Positions 17,600 to 54,481 of a DNA stretch of 64,000 bases are shown here, piece after piece; within the stretch, counting starts at the first letter, position 1, and the number at the start of each line of letters is the position of its first letter. Made by a program: the position numbers and the translations under genes. Source of the stretch: a bacterium (GTDB lineage Bacteria > Patescibacteriota > Saccharimonadia > CAILAD01 > BJGX01). Below the pieces are notes generated by a model. It did no database searches. It was not told the DNA's origin and saw only the letters and a list, made by a program, of their open reading frames with translations. The stretch is taken from positions 45,611 to 109,610 of the forward strand of contig JAKOQC010000249.1 in the NCBI GenBank assembly GCA_029778565.1, given 5' to 3'.

Positions 17600-18064
17600 G
17601 TGAGTTAGCGCACAATCGCTCGTTTTTTACGAGAGGAAAGTCCGAACAGCACAGAGTACAGTAGTTGCTAACGGCAACCTAGGGTAACCTACGGGAAAGT
17701 GCCGCAGAAACTATACCGCCCCTCACCATATCACTTGAGTTACGAGTGATATGGTGAGGGGTAAGGGTGAAAAGAGTGTCCTCGCTTGCGAGGAGTAAGT
17801 TTTAATCACACAGTGATCAATATTTACAGGTAAGAGCTCACAATCTTAGTTGGTGACAATTAAGAGTTGGTAAACCCTGCTGGCTGCAAGATTAATGGAT
17901 CCTTCTACATATTGTAGACAAGTTACTCGCTTGAGAAATAGGATATATCGCATGATCCCACGCCATCTGATGGTGCGGGACGCCCGGAAACGGGAAGATA
18001 GATGATTGTGGTCTCTCACTATGCAATGGTGAGAGATACAGAATTCGGCTTATAACTAACTCAC
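17600..18064 (+). ncRNA. rnpB: RNase P RNA
   Basis: GAGGAAAGTCC, AGTGCCGCAGAAA, GGTAAACCC, ACAGAATTCGGCTTAT; P1 GTGAGTTAG/CTAACTCAC; terminator follows. Confidence 0.95.
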
Positions 18065-18114
18065 ACCAGAAAAAGCTCTATTGAATAGGGCTTTTTTGGT
18101 ATAATAAAGCAAGC

Positions 18115-33351: not shown

Positions 33352-33751
33352 GGGGCTGTATTAGCTTTGACATATGGAACTTTGAAAAATATTCGCAAGC
33401 CGGGCCGGAATGCACGTTAGCCGTTCCAAAACACTTTAAGTGCCAATACACTTATTAGCAAGGTAAAGGCTGCTTTTGCAGCTCCTAGCCTTGCGCCAGC
33501 ATTTGCCTAATACGCTATGCCGCTTACTACCCAGACACCAGATAGGGTAACAAGCGTCGATTATCTGGATGCGGTCTTACCACCTCTCTGGGCGAGATCT
33601 AAGTAAAAATAAAGAGAGCAAGCAACTTGAGCGCTCTTGTCGGTTTTTTACACTCTTGGGGCTTGTAAAATCCCTTTAGAATCGACTATGCTTGAAGACG
33701 ATATTTTTTCAAACCGTATGGACGCGGGGGCAGAACCCGCCAGCTCCACCA
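33352..33751 (+). ncRNA. ssrA: tmRNA; tag ANTLISKVKAAFAAPSLAPAFA* (33442-33510)
   Basis: 5' GGGGCTG, 3' CAGCTCCACCA (G3-U70 pair), TTAAGT-GCC resume context, Ala-rich tag; TTGACA/TAAAAT promoter; smpB nearby. Confidence 0.95.
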
Positions 33752-37320: not shown

Positions 37321-37456
37321 TTGGTGGATTGACTTGTGCTGATCTTTTTTCTTTTTGATTTTGTTTTACCCTATGATTTTTTCAATCAACTAGTTATATT
37401 GTATCGAACCTATTGAGATTAGTATATATATAAGTATAAGAATTAAACCAAAGCAT

Positions 37457-37605
37457 AAAAAAAATCGAGCCGCAATTTGGCTCGAATACATTAATTTCTT
37501 TCTATTATTTATTTTGTTAAAACAAATTGACGGGGCTTTATGCCTCCGCCAATCTGTAAAAAAGAGCTTTGTTTTTGTTTTGAGTAATTTTAGTGTGCAG
37601 CACTA
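37457..37605 (-). ncRNA. candidate small RNA (or leaderless 21-aa ORF)
   Basis: TTGACA(37640)-18-TATTAT promoter, GC hairpin 37522-37557, terminator 37457-37485. Confidence 0.5.
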
Positions 37606-37675
37606 AATCCATAATACTGGTTAAGCATAAGCCTTGTCAACAACTTTTTTCAAAGTTTTTTTAGTTTTTTTGCAA

Positions 37676-46795: not shown

Positions 46796-46810
46796 TTCGT
46801 ATTGTGTTCG
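46796..46810 (+). promoter_or_regulatory. candidate LexA/SOS box TTCG-TATTGTG-TTCG
   Basis: Covers the -35 region of the rmuC promoter (TATAAT 46824). Confidence 0.65.
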
Positions 46811-46835
46811 TACATTTCAACTGTATAATGGATGT

Positions 46836-47912
46836 ATGATTACTTTTTTATTGTTCTTAATGGTTGTTATTCTCATAGTTGGTTTTTTAGGGCTGTATCT
46901 TTCGTTTCAGGGTAAATTAGCACGTCTAAAAGATGACTCTTCACTTGGTTATATCAAGCAAGATCTTGAGGCTCTTAACCAGACGCTTAGTAAGACCCAA
47001 GAAGCGATGCATGAACGTATTGATCGCAATAACGCCACTATGCAAAGCAGTATGCATAAACAAATGAGCGAGTCATCTCGACTAATTCAAGAAGTAACTA
47101 CGCGTCTCACCAAGCTTGACGAAACTAATCGTAGGGTAGTAGACGTAGCCGATGAGCTAAAAACCCTACAAAACGTACTGTCCAACCCTAAACAACGGGG
47201 TGTACTTGGTGAATACTATTTAGGTGAAATTCTCAAGAACACCATGCCTCCAGATAGATATCAGCTGCAATATAAATTTAAAAATGGTGAGATAGTTGAT
47301 GCAGCTATTTTTTTAGATCAGGGAAAAGTATTGCCGATAGATTCAAAGTTCAGTTTAGAAAACTATAATCGAGTAGTTGAGGCAAAGGATAAAGAGAAGC
47401 GAGATGCGCTTATTAAACAGTTTAAAGTCGATTTAAAAGCCAGAATTGATGAAACCTCTAAATATATTCGTCCAGATGAGAATACGATGGATTTTGCCTT
47501 TATGTTTATACCTTCCGAAGCCATATATTATGACCTCCTTGTAAATAAAGTAGGTACTATCCAGACGAGTTCTCAAGACTTAATAGAATATGCATTTCGA
47601 GATAAACGGGTCATTATTGTCTCACCGACATCATTTATGGCATATTTACAGACGGTTATGCAGGGATTGAGGAGCTTGCAAATAGAAGAACAAGCCAAAG
47701 AAATACAAAAACGTGTAGGTCAGCTAGGCAAGCATCTAATAAATTATGATGAATATATGCACAAGCTGGGTAATTCTCTTGGTACTACGGTGAACCACTA
47801 CAATACTGCCCATAAAGAATTGAAGAAAATAGACAAAGATGTAGTAAAAATTGCTACAACCGATGAAGCCGTTGAGCAGCTGGTTATTGAGAAGCCTCAT
47901 TTAGAAGATTAG
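46836..47912 (+). CDS. rmuC: DNA recombination protein RmuC
   Basis: KQRG.LGE, IDSKF, KYI.P, DFA.MFIPSE, VSPT. Confidence 0.93.
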   Translation: MITFLLFLMVVILIVGFLGLYLSFQGKLARLKDDSSLGYIKQDLEALNQTLSKTQEAMHERIDRNNATMQSSMHKQMSESSRLIQEVTTRLTKLDETNRRVVDVADELKTLQNVLSNPKQRGVLGEYYLGEILKNTMPPDRYQLQYKFKNGEIVDAAIFLDQGKVLPIDSKFSLENYNRVVEAKDKEKRDALIKQFKVDLKARIDETSKYIRPDENTMDFAFMFIPSEAIYYDLLVNKVGTIQTSSQDLIEYAFRDKRVIIVSPTSFMAYLQTVMQGLRSLQIEEQAKEIQKRVGQLGKHLINYDEYMHKLGNSLGTTVNHYNTAHKELKKIDKDVVKIATTDEAVEQLVIEKPHLED

Positions 47913-47936
47913 CTGTGATATAATTTAGAGTATGAA

Positions 47937-47980
47937 TCCCGTTAGAAAAACTTTCGGGATAGAAAGGGTATTCTAACGGG
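47937..47980. mobile_element. 44-bp MITE-like palindromic insertion with ATGAA direct repeats
   Basis: Inverted ends CCCGTTAGAA/TTCTAACGGG flanked by ATGAA at 47932 and 47981. Confidence 0.7.
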
Positions 47981-48964
47981 ATGAAAACAGTATTTTCAGG
48001 ACTAAAACCAAGTGGTGATATGACAATCGGCAACTATCTTGGAGCAATGAAAAACTGGCCTTATCAGCAGGGTCTAGCTAGAACAATCTTCTTTGTACCC
48101 AATGCACATGCTATAACTGTTCGCCAAGACCCTACAGAACTAAAAAAACGAACATATGATTTAGTAGCTTGGTTGATTACTGTTGGTTTAGATCCAAAGA
48201 AATCGATAATTCTTGTTCAGTCTAAAGTACCAGCTCATGCCGAGTTGTGTTGGATTCTCGATAACTACGTTACAATGGGCGAGCTCAGTAGAATGACCGA
48301 ATATAAAGATAAGTCACAAAAACTTGGCCCCGAAGGACAGTTAGTCGGCCTGTTTAACTACCCAGTATTAATGGCAGCAGATATTTTGCTTTACGATGCC
48401 AATGAAGTACCTGTAGGAGAAGATCAGAGACAGCATCTAGAGCTGGCACGTACGATTGCTGAGAGATTTAACCGTCTTTATGGTAATACCTTTGTTTTAC
48501 CCAAGGCAACAATTCCCAAAACTGGCGCTCGCATAATGGGTCTTGATGATCCTACTAAGAAAATGAGTAAGAGCGATCATCCTGATAGCTTTATTATGCT
48601 TGCCGAAACAGCTGATAGTATACGTAAGAAAATTAAACGGGCTGTTACTGATTCAGACAATAGAATAATTTATGACAAAAAGGGTAAACCAGCAGTTTCT
48701 AATTTAATAGAGATATATGCAGGCTTTAGCGATGAAACAATCTCTGTTATCGAAAAGCGGTTTGTAGGTAAAGGCTATGGCGAGTTCAAGGCAGAGCTAG
48801 CAGAGCTAGTGGTAGAGAAGTTATCTCAATTACAGGCCGAGTTTTATAAAATTCGCGATAATGAGGCAATGTTAGACAAAGTAATAGACTCGGGAAGTGC
48901 TAAAGCTGCCGAAATTGCGAACGAAAAGCTACGTGAAGTTAAAGAAAAAATTGGTTTATTGTAA
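47981..48964 (+). CDS. trpS: tryptophan--tRNA ligase
   Basis: SG.KPSG..TIGNY.GA, YPVLMAADILLY, VPVGEDQ.QH, KMSKS. Confidence 0.97.
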   Translation: MKTVFSGLKPSGDMTIGNYLGAMKNWPYQQGLARTIFFVPNAHAITVRQDPTELKKRTYDLVAWLITVGLDPKKSIILVQSKVPAHAELCWILDNYVTMGELSRMTEYKDKSQKLGPEGQLVGLFNYPVLMAADILLYDANEVPVGEDQRQHLELARTIAERFNRLYGNTFVLPKATIPKTGARIMGLDDPTKKMSKSDHPDSFIMLAETADSIRKKIKRAVTDSDNRIIYDKKGKPAVSNLIEIYAGFSDETISVIEKRFVGKGYGEFKAELAELVVEKLSQLQAEFYKIRDNEAMLDKVIDSGSAKAAEIANEKLREVKEKIGLL

Positions 48965-49051
48965 AATATACCACGTACTCTAACAGGTATAGATGTAATA
49001 AATACGTTAAAAAGCATTGACATTAGCATAAGCGTTTGCTACAATAGTCTT

Positions 49052-49587
49052 AACATTGTTCTTTCAAATAAAAATAAAAACCAACACAAAAACCATGCCA
49101 CAAATTCTTTACGCATTCTATGACGATACTTGATCTCTATAAAAGTATCTCTATTTAAACCAATTTCAACCTAATACGGTAGGGGAAGTCTGGCTCATAA
49201 AAGGCAGCCCCCTTGCTTTTTATAGCCAGTTTTTCCCTACTGTTCGAGGGGCAAACTAAGATAGTAATTTCTGCTGTTCTGTTAAGTTATTTGTACCTTG
49301 TCTATCTTCACCCGAAGGAGTCGGCTAGGACTTGCTCTCTAATTCTTTGGAGCGCGAATCCTGGCCGGTCTGCCATACGGATGGTTGGGAAGTCGTCAAC
49401 CGTGTATTTCAGTAATTGATGCATATATGCGCCTTGACAGCTTACAACGGCTACTTTCGGTTCTGCTGAGAGTTGGCCTTCGGGCCAGCGTGTGCCATTT
49501 AGTTAATTCTATTAAGGGCAGATACGTTGGCCCGTAACCAAATTTTGTTGAAAAGTAACCACTTTACTGCCAGTAGGGTGGTTTTTT
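49052..49587 (+). ncRNA. candidate large structured non-coding RNA
   Basis: TTGACA(49017)-17-TACAAT(49040); several long helices, UUCG tetraloop, terminator 49557-49587; no credible long ORF. Confidence 0.6.
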
Positions 49588-49640
49588 ATTTGTTTTCGTG
49601 ATAGTATACCTTAGTAAATTGTACCTGGAGGTAAGTCAGT

Positions 49641-49985
49641 ATGCCTACAAAGCTTACACATGGTGCTTATACAAGAGATAGTAAGTATGAGGTTGTGCAG
49701 CATCGCTATGCTGCTTCTGGGTTTGCTGCTTATGTAGAGTGCTTAGAGGTAGTAAACCCACCTGATGGTATGCCTAGGTATATTATTCACTGGTATTACA
49801 TAAAGGATGCGGTTTTCTCAGGGGATCATAGCTGGTATTTCTCTTCATTAAGTGCAGCTCAAAAAGCTTGGGATAAGTTTTGGAGACAATCTCAAAGTGA
49901 ACCTAAGGAACGGTTTAAAAATCAAGAAGGATTTATTTATTATGAATACAATAGCAGCGATTCTCCATGGTATTACGTAAAGTAA
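49641..49985 (+). CDS. hypothetical aromatic-rich protein
   Basis: GGAGG RBS, own -10, downstream terminator 49985-50012. Confidence 0.7.
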   Translation: MPTKLTHGAYTRDSKYEVVQHRYAASGFAAYVECLEVVNPPDGMPRYIIHWYYIKDAVFSGDHSWYFSSLSAAQKAWDKFWRQSQSEPKERFKNQEGFIYYEYNSSDSPWYYVK

Positions 49986-50319
49986 CCCTAACCCTGTGTT
50001 AGGGTATTTTTTATTGTTATTAATTTTTGACATAATAATAGGCAACTTATGCACAATATCCACAAGCCGAGCTAAAAGTGTTCGGTTTTTTACAAATTAC
50101 ATAATTATTTAATTTAGCTCGCTCAAGCATTACACAAATTGAACTGCAAAATAGAATTTACAAAATATTACAACACTAGTCTTAAGAATAAAATAAGTAT
50201 TCATTAGCATTTTCTAGTATCACAAAATAAAAAATGTATGCAATATTGAATAGATTATTTGATCAAATAGCATAATTTGATGGAAATGCTCTAAACCAGT
50301 ACAATAGAAGGTACAAATT

Positions 50320-50718
50320 ATGCTTTCACAACGTTCTGTCATACTACTTTCTATATTTGGGCTCGTTTTTTCATTTATTATCTCTACTCTAGGGGTGGTA
50401 TATGCCTTATTTACGTATACGCCTGCTAAATTGGGTCCAGCGGGTATTACTTTTTGGTTTATTGGCATACTAATAAGTGTAGGAAGTGTTATAGCTTTGC
50501 TTGGTTTCTTGTGGAAGTTACGTCACGAAGAACATCGTTTGACCGCTGCAAAGGCACTTACTAGCTCTTTGCGTACAGGTTTCTTGGTGGGTTTTACGGT
50601 ATCGATTTTATTGGCTCTCTCGAGTTTGAGAAGCCTAAGTATTCGTGATATTATCTTATTTATTCTTGTAGTAGTGGTAATAGAAATCTATTTTCGTACC
50701 AGAAAGAAAAGAGTATGA
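50320..50718 (+). CDS. four-TM membrane protein
   Basis: Hydrophobic helices; ATGA-coupled to pheS. Confidence 0.75.
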   Translation: MLSQRSVILLSIFGLVFSFIISTLGVVYALFTYTPAKLGPAGITFWFIGILISVGSVIALLGFLWKLRHEEHRLTAAKALTSSLRTGFLVGFTVSILLALSSLRSLSIRDIILFILVVVVIEIYFRTRKKRV

Positions 50719-51701
50719 CCTCACAGAACGACATAATTAAGGCCCTAGAGGCTGATTTAGTGCAAGCGAGCAACGAGCATGCAATTGCGCAAGTTAAATC
50801 TAAATATCTTGGTAATAATAGTTTTATTTCTGAGCAACTTCGCTTGTTGCCAGGCTTAGCCCCAGAAGAAAAAGCCCAAAAGGGTAAAGAGCTGAATATT
50901 CTCAAAAACCAGATAGAACATGCAATTACCGAGGCACGCGAGCAGTTATTGTCATCACAGCAATTTCCAATAAAAGACATATCTCTGCCAGGGCAGAGAT
51001 TTAAGCAGCCCTATGGGCATATGCATCCTGCGAGTAGGGTGTTACAAGAAACCTATAAGATATTTTCAGATTTAGGCTTTGCGGTGGTAGATAGCGGCGA
51101 GATAGAGACTGATTGGTATAACTTTGAGGCTCTTAATATGCCCGAAACTCACCCGGCGCGTGAAATGCAAGACACATTTTATATAAAAAACAATGGCAAG
51201 TTAGATGTTTTGCCCCGTACGCACACGTCTGGAATGCAAGTACGGTTTATGGAGGCAAATAAACCGCCATTTAAAATTATTGTACCTGGCAGGGTGTTTC
51301 GGAATGAAGACGAAGACGTTACTCATATTTGGGCTTTTCATCAGATAGAAGGCCTGGTTGTGGGCGAGGGGGTATCGATGGCACAGCTAAAGGGAACATT
51401 GCTACATGTTGTGCAGGGAATTCTAGGGCCAGAGGCTGACATTCGTTTTCGGCCTAGCTACTTTCCGTACACCGAGCCATCTGTAGAGCTCGATTGTCGT
51501 TATAAGGGTCAGTGGTTAGAGTTGGGTGGAGCAGGAATGATTAACCCTGTAGTACTGCAAAATGGTGGTATAGACCCCGAAAAATATACTGGTTTTGCCT
51601 TTGGTTGGGGTGCTGAGCGAATCGCTGCTATTAAATATGGGCTCGATGATTTACGCGAGCTGTGGCGACCACGCTTTGAATTTTTGGAGCAATTTGTATG
51701 A
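50715..51701 (+). CDS. pheS: phenylalanine--tRNA ligase alpha subunit
   Basis: NFEALN.PE.HPAR.MQDTF, RTHTS, FHQIEG, RPSYFPYTEPS, GFAFG.G.ER. Confidence 0.97.
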   Translation: MTSQNDIIKALEADLVQASNEHAIAQVKSKYLGNNSFISEQLRLLPGLAPEEKAQKGKELNILKNQIEHAITEAREQLLSSQQFPIKDISLPGQRFKQPYGHMHPASRVLQETYKIFSDLGFAVVDSGEIETDWYNFEALNMPETHPAREMQDTFYIKNNGKLDVLPRTHTSGMQVRFMEANKPPFKIIVPGRVFRNEDEDVTHIWAFHQIEGLVVGEGVSMAQLKGTLLHVVQGILGPEADIRFRPSYFPYTEPSVELDCRYKGQWLELGGAGMINPVVLQNGGIDPEKYTGFAFGWGAERIAAIKYGLDDLRELWRPRFEFLEQFV

Positions 51702-54481
51702 AAGTAAGTATACAATGGCTTAATAGCTATCTAAAAGAAAGACTTTCGACTAACGAAATAGTAGCCGCACTAGAACGCACCGAAGTTGAGATAGAAGAAG
51801 TTATTACACCACCAAAGCTAGATAAAAAAGTTATTACTGCCAAAGTGGTTAATGTAATAGACCATCCAAATGCTGATAAACTTAGGCTCGTTGATATTGA
51901 GTTTGGTAAAACAAAACGCCGGGTTGTATGTGGCGCGCCAAATGTTCGAAAAGGTTTGGTAGTGGCATATGCTCAGCCAGGCAGTGTGTTGCCAGAGGAT
52001 TTTGTTATTGGTGAGAGAGAAATTCGTGGTGAGAAATCGGCCGGCATGTTGGCCTCGGCGAAAGAGCTTGGCATGGGTAATGATCATAGTGGTATAGTAG
52101 AGCTCGACCCTGATCTCCCCCTTGGAATATCATTGTGCGACATAGAGAATATGGCCGATATTGTGGATGTTAAGACGCCAGCAAACCGATGGGATTTATT
52201 GTCGGTTTTGGGTTTGGCGCGCGAAATTTCTGCTAATTCTTCTAAAAATCAGGTTGTAGAACCAAAACGTGAGAAAATAGAATATAAAAACAGAGAAGTG
52301 GTGAAAGTCAAGGAAACTGGGGAGTGTGAACGATTTATTAGTGCGGTATTTAAAATTGATAGCAATGCAGAGACACCGGCTTGGATTGTGGAAAACTTAG
52401 AGGCGGCGGGGATGCGAGCTATACACCCCGTTGTAGATATTACTAACTTTGTCATGTTAGAGACTGGACAGCCTAGCCATGCGTATGACAGTAAAAAACT
52501 CAAGGGTGCTTTGCAAGTGCGTTTTGCCCGGGCCGGTGAACTCCTCTCTACTTTGGACGGGGTTGAAAGAAAACTGACAAAAGAAGATTTAGTTATTGCT
52601 GATAATTCCGGCGCAATTGGATTGGCGGGTGTAATGGGTGGAGCAAGTAGCGAAGTAAGCACTCAAACTCAAGAAATTGTACTAGAAGTTGCTAATTTTA
52701 ACAAAACCACTGTTCGTAGAAGTGCACTGCGCCATGGTTTGCGTTCTGAGGCGAGTACTCGATTTGAAAAAGGGCTACCTCTCCCTCTTCCCTGTTTCGC
52801 TTTTGAGCGAGCTGCGCAGTTACTTAAAGAAATTTGTAAGGCCGAACTTATTGGAGACGTAAATGATCAATTATATGCTTGGCCGTGGATTTCGTTTGTT
52901 GGTTTGCGTCAACGTCGCGCAGAAATGGTACTGGGTACAAAGCTGAATGAAAAAGAAATAATTGAAGGGTTGCGTGCGCGTGGGTTTAGTGCAGAACACT
53001 TTTCTCTTTCTGCCGAGGCTAAAAAACATCTTGGCAAGCCATATGTATATGGTGCTAGCTTTAAGAAAAACGGCGAAGAAGCTTTTGACTGTTCATATTT
53101 AGTAGAGAGAATATATTCAAAAATTGGGATTGCAATTGGCCATACTGCTCAGCAACAATTTAACTCTGGAAAGCCTGTCGAAAAAGATAATCTCAAACCT
53201 GGAGATTTAGTGTTTTATTCGGGTCATTGGGAAAAATTAGACGCCAAAAGCCGTGGCGATATTGGACATGTGGGGATGTATTTGGGTAAAAACCAAGTTA
53301 TTGAGGCAAGTGAATACGAGTTTGACACCAAAATTGGCAAGTATATAAAACGCAAAACTGCCGACGTACGCTATACTACGCTTGATAGTTATACGAGCAA
53401 TCCTACTTTTAAAGGTGCGCGACGGTATACTGAGAGCTTTAATCATATTATTGCTGTTGTTGCTCCCTGGTGGCGTACTGATATTGTAAAAGAAGTTGAT
53501 TTAATTGAAGAAGCCGCCAAAATATTGGGGTATGAAAATATGCCGAGCAAGTTGCCCGAATTACCGCCTATGGAAACGGCAGATCATCAAATGTTACCTG
53601 GATTAATGGGTATGCGCGAAGATTTAGTAGCTGCAGGATTATTTGAAGTAACTACGTATTCATTTGTTAGCGAGCAAGACTTGCTTGATACTCATATTGA
53701 TCCCACGAGTGTGTTGGCAATAGAAAACCCAATGAGCAAAGAACAGGCCTATTTACGTAACTCGCTTTTAAGTAGTCACCTACAGACAGTAGCTCGTAAT
53801 AATACATTCTATGAAAAAGAATATGGTTTTTTTGAGCTTGCTCGAATATACGAAAAATCTCCCCGCTCTAAAACATTAGCCCAAGAGAGCTGGCGACTAG
53901 CGATCTGTGCAGTTGGTAAAAACGGTCTCGAAAGGATAAAAAGTGTGCTCGATATGTGTGAAAGTCGCTACCAACTAAGGTTGGCGTACAAGCGCAGTGA
54001 AGAAGCCAATTTCTTACCCGGCCGAACAGCCACCCTACAGAGCCAGAGAATACCTGAAGTTAGGGGATTATATGGACAGGTTAAACCTATTTGTCTAAAA
54101 AAATTCTCAATTAGTGATGAGATAGTGTTTGCCGAAATTATATTGCCTGATCAGTCTATTTTTGCAGAAAGCACCCAAAAATCGGTGTCCCTTCTCCCCT
54201 ATCAGCTTGTTAGCCGCGACCTTACGCTCGAGTTACCCAATGAAGTTCTTTGGCAAAACATTGCATTGATTGTAAAATCGCAGAAACGTATATCTCGGGT
54301 GCAATTTCTACAGGAATTTGCCAGTGAAGAATTAACAAAAACAAATAAGAAACGGGTGAGTATGCGAATTTGGATTGATTGCGGGGCTAATCCTAGCCAA
54401 AAAGAGATAACAAAATATATGAGTGCTATAGAAAGTACCTTACTTGCTGACAAAACGCTAAAGCAAGTCAAAATAGTCTGA
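51698..54481 (+). CDS. pheT: phenylalanine--tRNA ligase beta subunit with inserted NlpC/P60 domain
   Basis: HPNADKL, CGAPN, RG..S.GM, VVDITN.VM.E.GQP.HAYD, RFEKG, P..R.DI...DLIEE, NP...EQ..LR; extra ~145 aa at ~53001-53430. Confidence 0.95.
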   Translation: MKVSIQWLNSYLKERLSTNEIVAALERTEVEIEEVITPPKLDKKVITAKVVNVIDHPNADKLRLVDIEFGKTKRRVVCGAPNVRKGLVVAYAQPGSVLPEDFVIGEREIRGEKSAGMLASAKELGMGNDHSGIVELDPDLPLGISLCDIENMADIVDVKTPANRWDLLSVLGLAREISANSSKNQVVEPKREKIEYKNREVVKVKETGECERFISAVFKIDSNAETPAWIVENLEAAGMRAIHPVVDITNFVMLETGQPSHAYDSKKLKGALQVRFARAGELLSTLDGVERKLTKEDLVIADNSGAIGLAGVMGGASSEVSTQTQEIVLEVANFNKTTVRRSALRHGLRSEASTRFEKGLPLPLPCFAFERAAQLLKEICKAELIGDVNDQLYAWPWISFVGLRQRRAEMVLGTKLNEKEIIEGLRARGFSAEHFSLSAEAKKHLGKPYVYGASFKKNGEEAFDCSYLVERIYSKIGIAIGHTAQQQFNSGKPVEKDNLKPGDLVFYSGHWEKLDAKSRGDIGHVGMYLGKNQVIEASEYEFDTKIGKYIKRKTADVRYTTLDSYTSNPTFKGARRYTESFNHIIAVVAPWWRTDIVKEVDLIEEAAKILGYENMPSKLPELPPMETADHQMLPGLMGMREDLVAAGLFEVTTYSFVSEQDLLDTHIDPTSVLAIENPMSKEQAYLRNSLLSSHLQTVARNNTFYEKEYGFFELARIYEKSPRSKTLAQESWRLAICAVGKNGLERIKSVLDMCESRYQLRLAYKRSEEANFLPGRTATLQSQRIPEVRGLYGQVKPICLKKFSISDEIVFAEIILPDQSIFAESTQKSVSLLPYQLVSRDLTLELPNEVLWQNIALIVKSQKRISRVQFLQEFASEELTKTNKKRVSMRIWIDCGANPSQKEITKYMSAIESTLLADKTLKQVKIV

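Follow-up and report, generated by a model that had tools for sequence, protein, structure and literature searches.

A structured RNA gene of about 500 nt, widely conserved in Patescibacteria, with a C-rich loop tentatively linked to Shine–Dalgarno sequences

The locus and its neighbours

The window, a stretch of 64,000 nt from a Saccharimonadia genome (G000; assembly GCA_029778565.1, contig JAKOQC010000249.1, positions 45,611–109,610), carries on its + strand a unit at 49017–49590 which is almost certainly a genuine structured RNA gene, complete from promoter to terminator. Its upstream neighbour is trpS (47981–48964, +; PF00579), which lies outside the RNA, served as synteny marker and stood directly upstream of the RNA in 28/28 loci. 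The unit opens with a sigma70-type promoter, TTGACA-17-TACAAT with an extended −10 element (49017–49045, 11/12 match), which the original prediction had called near-consensus, which a program-made promoter scan recovered and which is conserved in alignment A1. A promoter-like site precedes 71/76 homologues, and transcription is expected to start near 49052. An intrinsic terminator at 49557–49590 (49557–49583 in the scan) closes the unit; its sequence is unconserved.

Between these signals, all on the + strand, a boxA-like motif is followed by a single-stranded A-rich tract with the family motif CAAAAAYAAAA (49057–49094), near-invariant in A1 and a predicted landing site for a protein or the ribosome. 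Next come a lineage-restricted mini-ORF of 12 codons (49095–49133), whose UGA falls inside the conserved loop of the following hairpin, and that hairpin itself (49125–49149), short, with a UGA(A/U)CU loop conserved in A1 and found by strict pattern in 33/76 homologues; a GGUG-CYGAW-CACC hairpin in other classes is probably the same module. P1, a long covarying helix at 49176–49243, exposes a C-rich apical loop (CCCCC, 49208–49212), the proposed seed for pairing with Shine–Dalgarno (SD) sequences. It is followed by a variable helix P2 (49258–49308; exact helix in 3/27) with a recurrent UGYACYU motif at 49292–49298, and by a middle rod (49309–49392) composed of CC-GNN-GG, a covarying helix at 49322–49367 and CC-N8-UGGU-GGGAAG. 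The 3' domain (49481–49540), the module kept most widely in the family, consists of a 12-bp helix, a 2-nt bulge, a 4-bp helix and an A/U-rich loop, followed by UAACCA; in 20/25 members from other classes it runs into a U tract itself.

The + strand of 49050–49590 folded at −184.5 kcal/mol (z −7.58), and 0/100 shuffles were as good; the − strand of the same region gave z −2.91. In the predicted ensemble the P1 loop was unpaired with probability 0.98, and the 3' helix and terminator were paired with probability 0.94–1.0. The gene is single copy in its genome. Expression was checked against window positions 46800–51800 in 8/22 listed runs, all available as assembled contigs, five of which were RNA only by guess and four of these probably DNA. 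In the three RNA-labelled runs, assembled contigs of relatives covered the element; the longest begins at the end of trpS and continues for 156 nt beyond the terminator, which is compatible with DNA.

A small membrane-protein gene and pheS lie further downstream in most BLAST loci, with varying genes in between. In the window, the former encodes a 132-aa hydrophobic protein without Pfam family (50320–50718, +) and overlaps pheS. It is a syntenic neighbour in Saccharimonadia and an uncharacterised near-core gene of the phylum, present in 116/151 Patescibacteria and 130/151 Saccharimonadia genomes; in the loci read it immediately precedes pheS. As an obligate partner of the RNA it was rejected, there being no RNA-sized gap before its gene in most of 40 loci from other classes. 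Downstream genes are unrelated even within the genus, and the neighbours change with class (trpS/membrane gene/pheS; dksA-traR; a class I synthetase; an RNA methyltransferase), so that the RNA is not the leader of one gene. Directly behind the RNA, a 114-codon ORF with its own SD and terminator (49641–49985, +) is unconserved and without Pfam match; two congeners carry another gene there, and the site is a variable insertion site.

Conserved structure

Covariation was strong in P1 and in the 3' domain. For P1, 11/25 pairs showed changes on both sides, with covariation above all 500 shuffles, and the CCCCC loop over this stem was invariant in 24/24 rows. In the 3' domain (49481–49534), 9/16 pairs were compensated in 41 class members and 14/16 in 42 phylum-wide members, above all 500 shuffles and all slid controls; the covariation among Patescibacteria homologues that had been proposed as a check was thus found. 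The helix 49322–49330/49359–49367 was paired in 19–26/27 rows per position with several pair types, and 8/8 homologues tested folded at z −6.3 to −12.0. In the middle domain the sequence-only alignment slips in register: RNAalifold kept four pairs there, and the structure taken from one row scored 67% paired.

The motifs quoted in the original prediction lie at, or within a few bases of, the positions given there: GCCCCCT at 49207, GAGGGGC at 49246, AAGATAG at 49258, CTATCTT at 49302, CGGCTAGGA at 49322, TCCTGGCCG at 49359, GGCC-TTCG-GGCC at 49475–49486, CGGGCCAGCG at 49481, CGTTGGCCCG at 49525, GGCTACTTTC at 49449 and GAAAAGTAACC at 49550. Several pairings proposed between them did not hold up among the homologues. 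A pseudoknot of the P1 loop with GAGGGG was complete in 4/27 without compensatory change, and forming it would require 3 nt of linker to bridge a ~30-bp helix. The switch suggested for the 3' domain fails, the UUCG hairpin being complete in 3/27 and having a pair probability of 0.0 in the window ensemble; the antiterminator pairing of GGCTACTTTC with GAAAAGTAACC occurs in 0/27 and likewise has probability 0.0. A UACGG/CCGUG helix was kept in 3/27. The predicted mini-ORF did recur in close relatives, with ATG (49095 in the window) in 19/27 rows, the loop UGA in frame in 15/19 and the ORF ending there in 11; it was not noted in other classes read by eye.

All 27 close homologues share the 3' ACCA, whereas other homologues have different letters there, and outside part of one order it is lost. 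A tRNA-like CCA end or tmRNA-like acceptor was rejected on this replacement and because ARAGORN finds nothing at the locus; a long-range UGGU–ACCA pair was rejected because UGGU persists where ACCA is lost.

Distribution of the family

The Rfam scan of the locus gave nothing at gathering score and five chance matches at E up to 10, far below gathering; 20 homologous loci gave ten unrelated chance matches, with no family twice. No match at or near the gathering threshold was thus found to any Rfam 15 family (OLE, ROOL, GOLLD, raiA, SRP, 6S, T-box, riboswitches and introns included), as would be expected of a new RNA. BLAST matches were obtained in 33/61 genomes, its own included, and 28/30 returned loci were collinear homologues. 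Together with the single copy and the strong covariation, these results bear out the suggestion of a new large ncRNA.

Pattern scans matched Saccharibacteria/Saccharimonadia and one CPR2 genome. Among 151 Saccharimonadia genomes, a 5'-helix covariance model matched 85 and a 3'-domain model 97, and families f7, f8 and f9, missed by the models, carry the RNA at the same place on direct reading; the large model searches were run with strict filters, which makes their counts lower bounds. With an E cut-off of 0.01, a broader 3' model matched 22/143 Patescibacteria genomes from outside the class, of which nine had trained the model and 13 were new, 12 with upstream modules and one, which looks false, without. 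In three further classes it matched 9/11, 2/5 and 5/38 genomes, two of the last five looking false and one being uninspected. Its matches in controls were 0/5 in unrelated genomes and, in Bacillota (the phylum of a Syntrophomonas genome), 2/101 at E 0.008, about chance. Two patterns run on phage contigs gave three matches, all to unrelated sequence.

Model matches L250, L345, L346, L258 and L259, which have no upstream modules, were treated as false, and L251 is the uninspected one; pattern matches L031, L032, L038, L041, L051 and L058 and BLAST matches L029 and L030 were dropped as chance. Alignment A5 excludes the wrong-strand L037, L062 and L109 and the over-long L141, and alignment A7 the picks L207, L212, L208, L206, L118, L034 and L079. 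One contig in a Bacteroidetes-titled bin (L033) carries trpS and the RNA with a middle domain near-identical to that of a family f1 member, and is probably mis-binned.

The window RNA, ~500 nt long, belongs to an uncatalogued, widely conserved, Patescibacteria-wide family of structured RNAs. No description of it came up in literature listings or in word look-ups in candidate papers; large candidate lists (Fremin 2021; a 2026 language-model preprint) could hold it. Patescibacteria make up a large share of bacterial diversity and have little non-coding DNA. Most Saccharimonadia, and many families in other classes, have retained the RNA gene; these hosts lack Hfq, Rho and SRP, and the RNA is probably part of the core biology of these epibionts. 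TM7x is reported to have no validated small RNA (10.1101/2022.03.25.485537).

Modular anatomy

Anatomy was counted in 76 homologues chosen by their 3' domain. The A-rich tract CAAAAAYAAAA was found in 60/76 against 8.5 expected from shuffles, the UGYACYU motif in 32/76 against 8.7 expected, and a C-rich hairpin loop, by a lax test, in 51/76 against 22 expected. The C-rich loop is missing in 25/76 (15/25 outside the class) and is thus not the universal core. Estimated member length ranges from ~110 to 650 nt with a median of 416.

The modules are rearranged within the family. The tract stands before P1 in the window RNA and after it in other classes; in L218 the C-loop hairpin is kept though moved to the 3' end; L079 has little beyond promoter, C-loop hairpin and U tract; L034 and L080 have P1 and tract without the 3' domain. 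The smallest members (~110–180 nt; L214, L215, L226, L233, L243) retain only promoter, A tract, one hairpin and 3' domain. A single RNA can carry as many as three copies of the tract, which is present in further leaders of G000 as well, including at a promoter like the rRNA promoter of G001.

In f8, f9 and their kin the main RNA has no C loop; in 10/15 loci it is adjoined by a divergent small RNA that combines a similar hairpin with UGAAU loop, the same A tract and a (C/U)CUCGCA loop; a split of one RNA gene into these two is possible. The small RNA was seen beside the main RNA at L205, L209–L212, L214, L215, L226, L233 and L243, and in nine f8 loci tmRNA adjoins both.

Separately, an ORF-poor unit of ~1.1 kb lies upstream of the membrane-protein gene at L179 (G076, ~1219–2400), with promoter, boxA-like motif and terminator. 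It has no Rfam match at gathering score and none to models R1 and R3, and is a candidate for a different large ncRNA.

The C-rich loop and Shine–Dalgarno usage

SD motifs are enriched before the starts of G000, AAGGAG occurring 51 times against 1.1 expected in 650 genes. Paired with AAGGAGG, the SD form used most often, the loop sequence CCCCCUU leaves one mismatch, which speaks against SD pairing. In 3/4 loci of family f7 the loop position is occupied by ACCUCCU, identical to the 16S tail of four Saccharimonadia genomes. Across a sample of 24 genomes, represented by 16–100 kb each (9–91 genes, except G000), with crude start calls, loop status called by eye and kin that are not independent, the ten genomes with the loop had a median SD excess of 21 points and the 12 without it one of 2.5 (p 0.0009). 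Placing the two f8/f9 genomes in the loop-less group gave p 0.003, restricting the set to genomes of 45 genes or more gave 0.046, and pooling two known classes, the sole phylogenetic correction, gave 0.01–0.02. The loop-bearing G176 and G119 make little use of SDs (2 and 6 points), and f8/f9 use SDs though their main RNA is without the loop. All four loop-less genomes read keep a normal 16S tail, which argues that the loop tracks SD use by mRNAs and not the rRNA.

In the SD-poor genomes G169, G124, G304, G100 and G307, the A-rich motif of the RNA family precedes 15–37% of start codons. One Patescibacteria class (G169, G124, G304; L295–L299, L320–L323, L328–L331) combines almost no SD use and A-rich starts with a normal 16S anti-SD tail, as in Bacteroidetes. 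For SD-less Bacteroidetes, adenines upstream of the start codon are reported to enhance initiation (PMC7797042).

Individual targets did not stand out. At −10 kcal/mol the apical region of P1 paired with 16% of start-codon regions, slightly more than the 11% for random DNA, and exact complements of at least 10 nt to it occur at one site only outside the RNA. In the five genomes tested, Hfq (PF17209), Rho and Ffh/FtsY were each not found in 5/5, and KhpA and NusB were present in 5/5.

Proposed function and alternatives

From sequence, we infer transcription, pairing of the loop with mRNAs, targets and a protein partner. Our tentative preference is for a riboregulator of the RsaE/RNAIII kind that pairs with SD sequences and is built on a protein-binding scaffold. 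The exposed C-rich loop would pair in trans with the SD sequences of mRNAs and act on their translation, and a protein or the 30S subunit would dock at the A-rich tract and bulged 3' stem; lineages that have given up SDs and have A-rich tracts ahead of their start codons could then do without the loop and would keep the scaffold. SD pairing is suggested because the loop is unpaired and does not vary above a stem that covaries (in three of four f7 loci it also has the anti-SD sequence), because SDs are used in G000 and because the loop is lost together with SD use. The tract and the 3' stem are found in more members than the loop, so that a role in protein or ribosome binding is probably the older core; moreover, an sRNA acting by seed pairing would not need 500 nt with helices conserved in sequence.

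In Bacillota, RsaE and RNAIII bind SD sequences through unpaired UCCC motifs, independently of Hfq, and RsaE/RoxS and RNAIII share with the present RNA, known here from its sequence, an independent transcript, a 5' hairpin and terminator, an unpaired C-rich motif in the most conserved region and a host without Hfq (PMC2790875). Two of four features of C-rich SD-targeting sRNAs were found, the unpaired conserved motif and, by sequence, the stand-alone unit in an SD-using host. The differences are that neither sequence nor model matches, that members of the present family have extra conserved modules and, as a rule, a single C loop borne by a long covarying helix, and that the loop is lost in a third of the family members. 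RNAIII is itself large and has a small ORF. The association of loop and SD turns a large RNA of unknown role into a directly testable one, and a natural-transformation system is described for Saccharibacteria (PMC10187176).

Rather doubtful, though not far-fetched, is a protein sponge or scaffold of the CsrB, CrcZ or OLE kind that acts via the A tract, the boxA-like UGYACYU and the bulged 3' stem, the C loop being secondary and possibly read by protein. It would accord with the smallest members, reduced to promoter, A tract, one hairpin and 3' domain, with the repetition of the tract within RNAs and its presence in other leaders of G000, with the NusB and KhpA genes of all five genomes, and with sequence conservation at base-paired positions, as expected for protein recognition. 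RNAs of the CsrB/CrcZ type are stand-alone, protein-sequestering and carry a repeated single-stranded motif. In the window RNA, by contrast, one to three copies are embedded among long conserved helices, few for a sponge; moreover, a sponge leaves unexplained why the C loop follows SD use and equals the anti-SD in f7, and the neighbouring membrane protein is unlinked in other classes.

An extension of the SD-pairing riboregulator, which we consider unlikely, is a lineage-defining housekeeping RNA of Patescibacteria, a free-standing anti-SD decoy and ribosome dock that would gate initiation globally, for example by parking host-free cells, with modules that have changed places, been cut down to 110 nt or been divided between two divergent genes, and a C loop that follows SD use.

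Less likely again is an mRNA mimic that docks ribosomes for storage or hibernation, in which the A tract would load the 30S subunit, a token ORF would be present in some lineages and the helices would hold the ribosome. The A-rich motif before start codons of several SD-poor genomes and, in family f1, the ATG behind the tract, in frame with the loop UGA in 15/19 rows, point in this direction; a start codon is nevertheless missing in 5/27 close homologues and was noted by eye in none from other classes, there is no tmRNA-like acceptor stem, and the 3' ACCA is confined as described above.

Very improbable is an ornate RNA of the OLE, ROOL or GOLLD kind which would oligomerise via loop contacts (the C loop with G runs) or work with the membrane protein. 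OLE RNA (RF01071; membrane partner OapA; PMC12286853) is likewise ~500 nt long with many helices, and a small membrane-protein gene lies downstream of the present RNA in Saccharimonadia; RNAs of this kind form oligomers via kissing loops (PMC12286853). ROOL (RF03087) and GOLLD (RF02032) are also large and structured, but are borne by phages or prophages, whereas the window RNA is chromosomal, single copy and absent from the phage contigs scanned with two patterns. No Rfam match appeared at E up to 10, the loop has no covarying partner and no pseudoknot covaries, and the way in which modules change order, drop out or are divided does not resemble a compact fold. Nor was the fixed link of OLE to a membrane-protein partner gene found: the RNA ends at a terminator of its own ahead of the membrane gene, this gene overlaps pheS and is not adjacent in most other classes, and the length of the RNA varies about six-fold.

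A diverged housekeeping RNA, SRP or 6S, would be single copy, phylum-wide and strongly promoted like this one, and neither is annotated in most genomes tested; both identities were rejected and are highly improbable, as Ffh/FtsY stayed below cut-off and the large SRP gave no match at E up to 10 in 5/5 genomes each, while for 6S the RNA is not a closed rod, RF00013 has no match at the locus and the sole weak match lies 36 kb from the RNA (G041). Scarcely credible, finally, is a cis-acting attenuator or riboswitch, part of the original prediction, for which the window offers a mini-ORF, a terminator and complementary segments, but against which stand the antiterminator in 0/27 and the alternative hairpin in 3/27 homologues, a terminator of unconserved sequence that is separate from the conserved core, and a downstream gene that differs between relatives and classes.

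Other features of the window and its genome

Of the structural RNAs originally placed elsewhere in the window, RNase P (17600–18068) and tmRNA (33352–33751) were recovered and a 6S RNA was not, at Rfam gathering score. A small non-coding unit at 37391–37650 (−), with promoter, short hairpin, the same A-rich tract, GC hairpin and terminator and without Rfam match, may be what had been called 6S.

The G000 assembly comprises 2.25 Mb in 633 contigs, of which the 15 longer than 20 kb together give 0.82 Mb, matching its relatives in size; the remainder may be foreign. AGCATAAGC or its complement overlaps many strong promoters of G000, for example at 49025–49033 of the window, and its presence at so many promoters led us to reject this promoter spacer as an operator of the RNA gene. 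In relatives AGCATAAGC forms an inverted repeat around the −35 box, and a regulator site or a sigma preference is possible.
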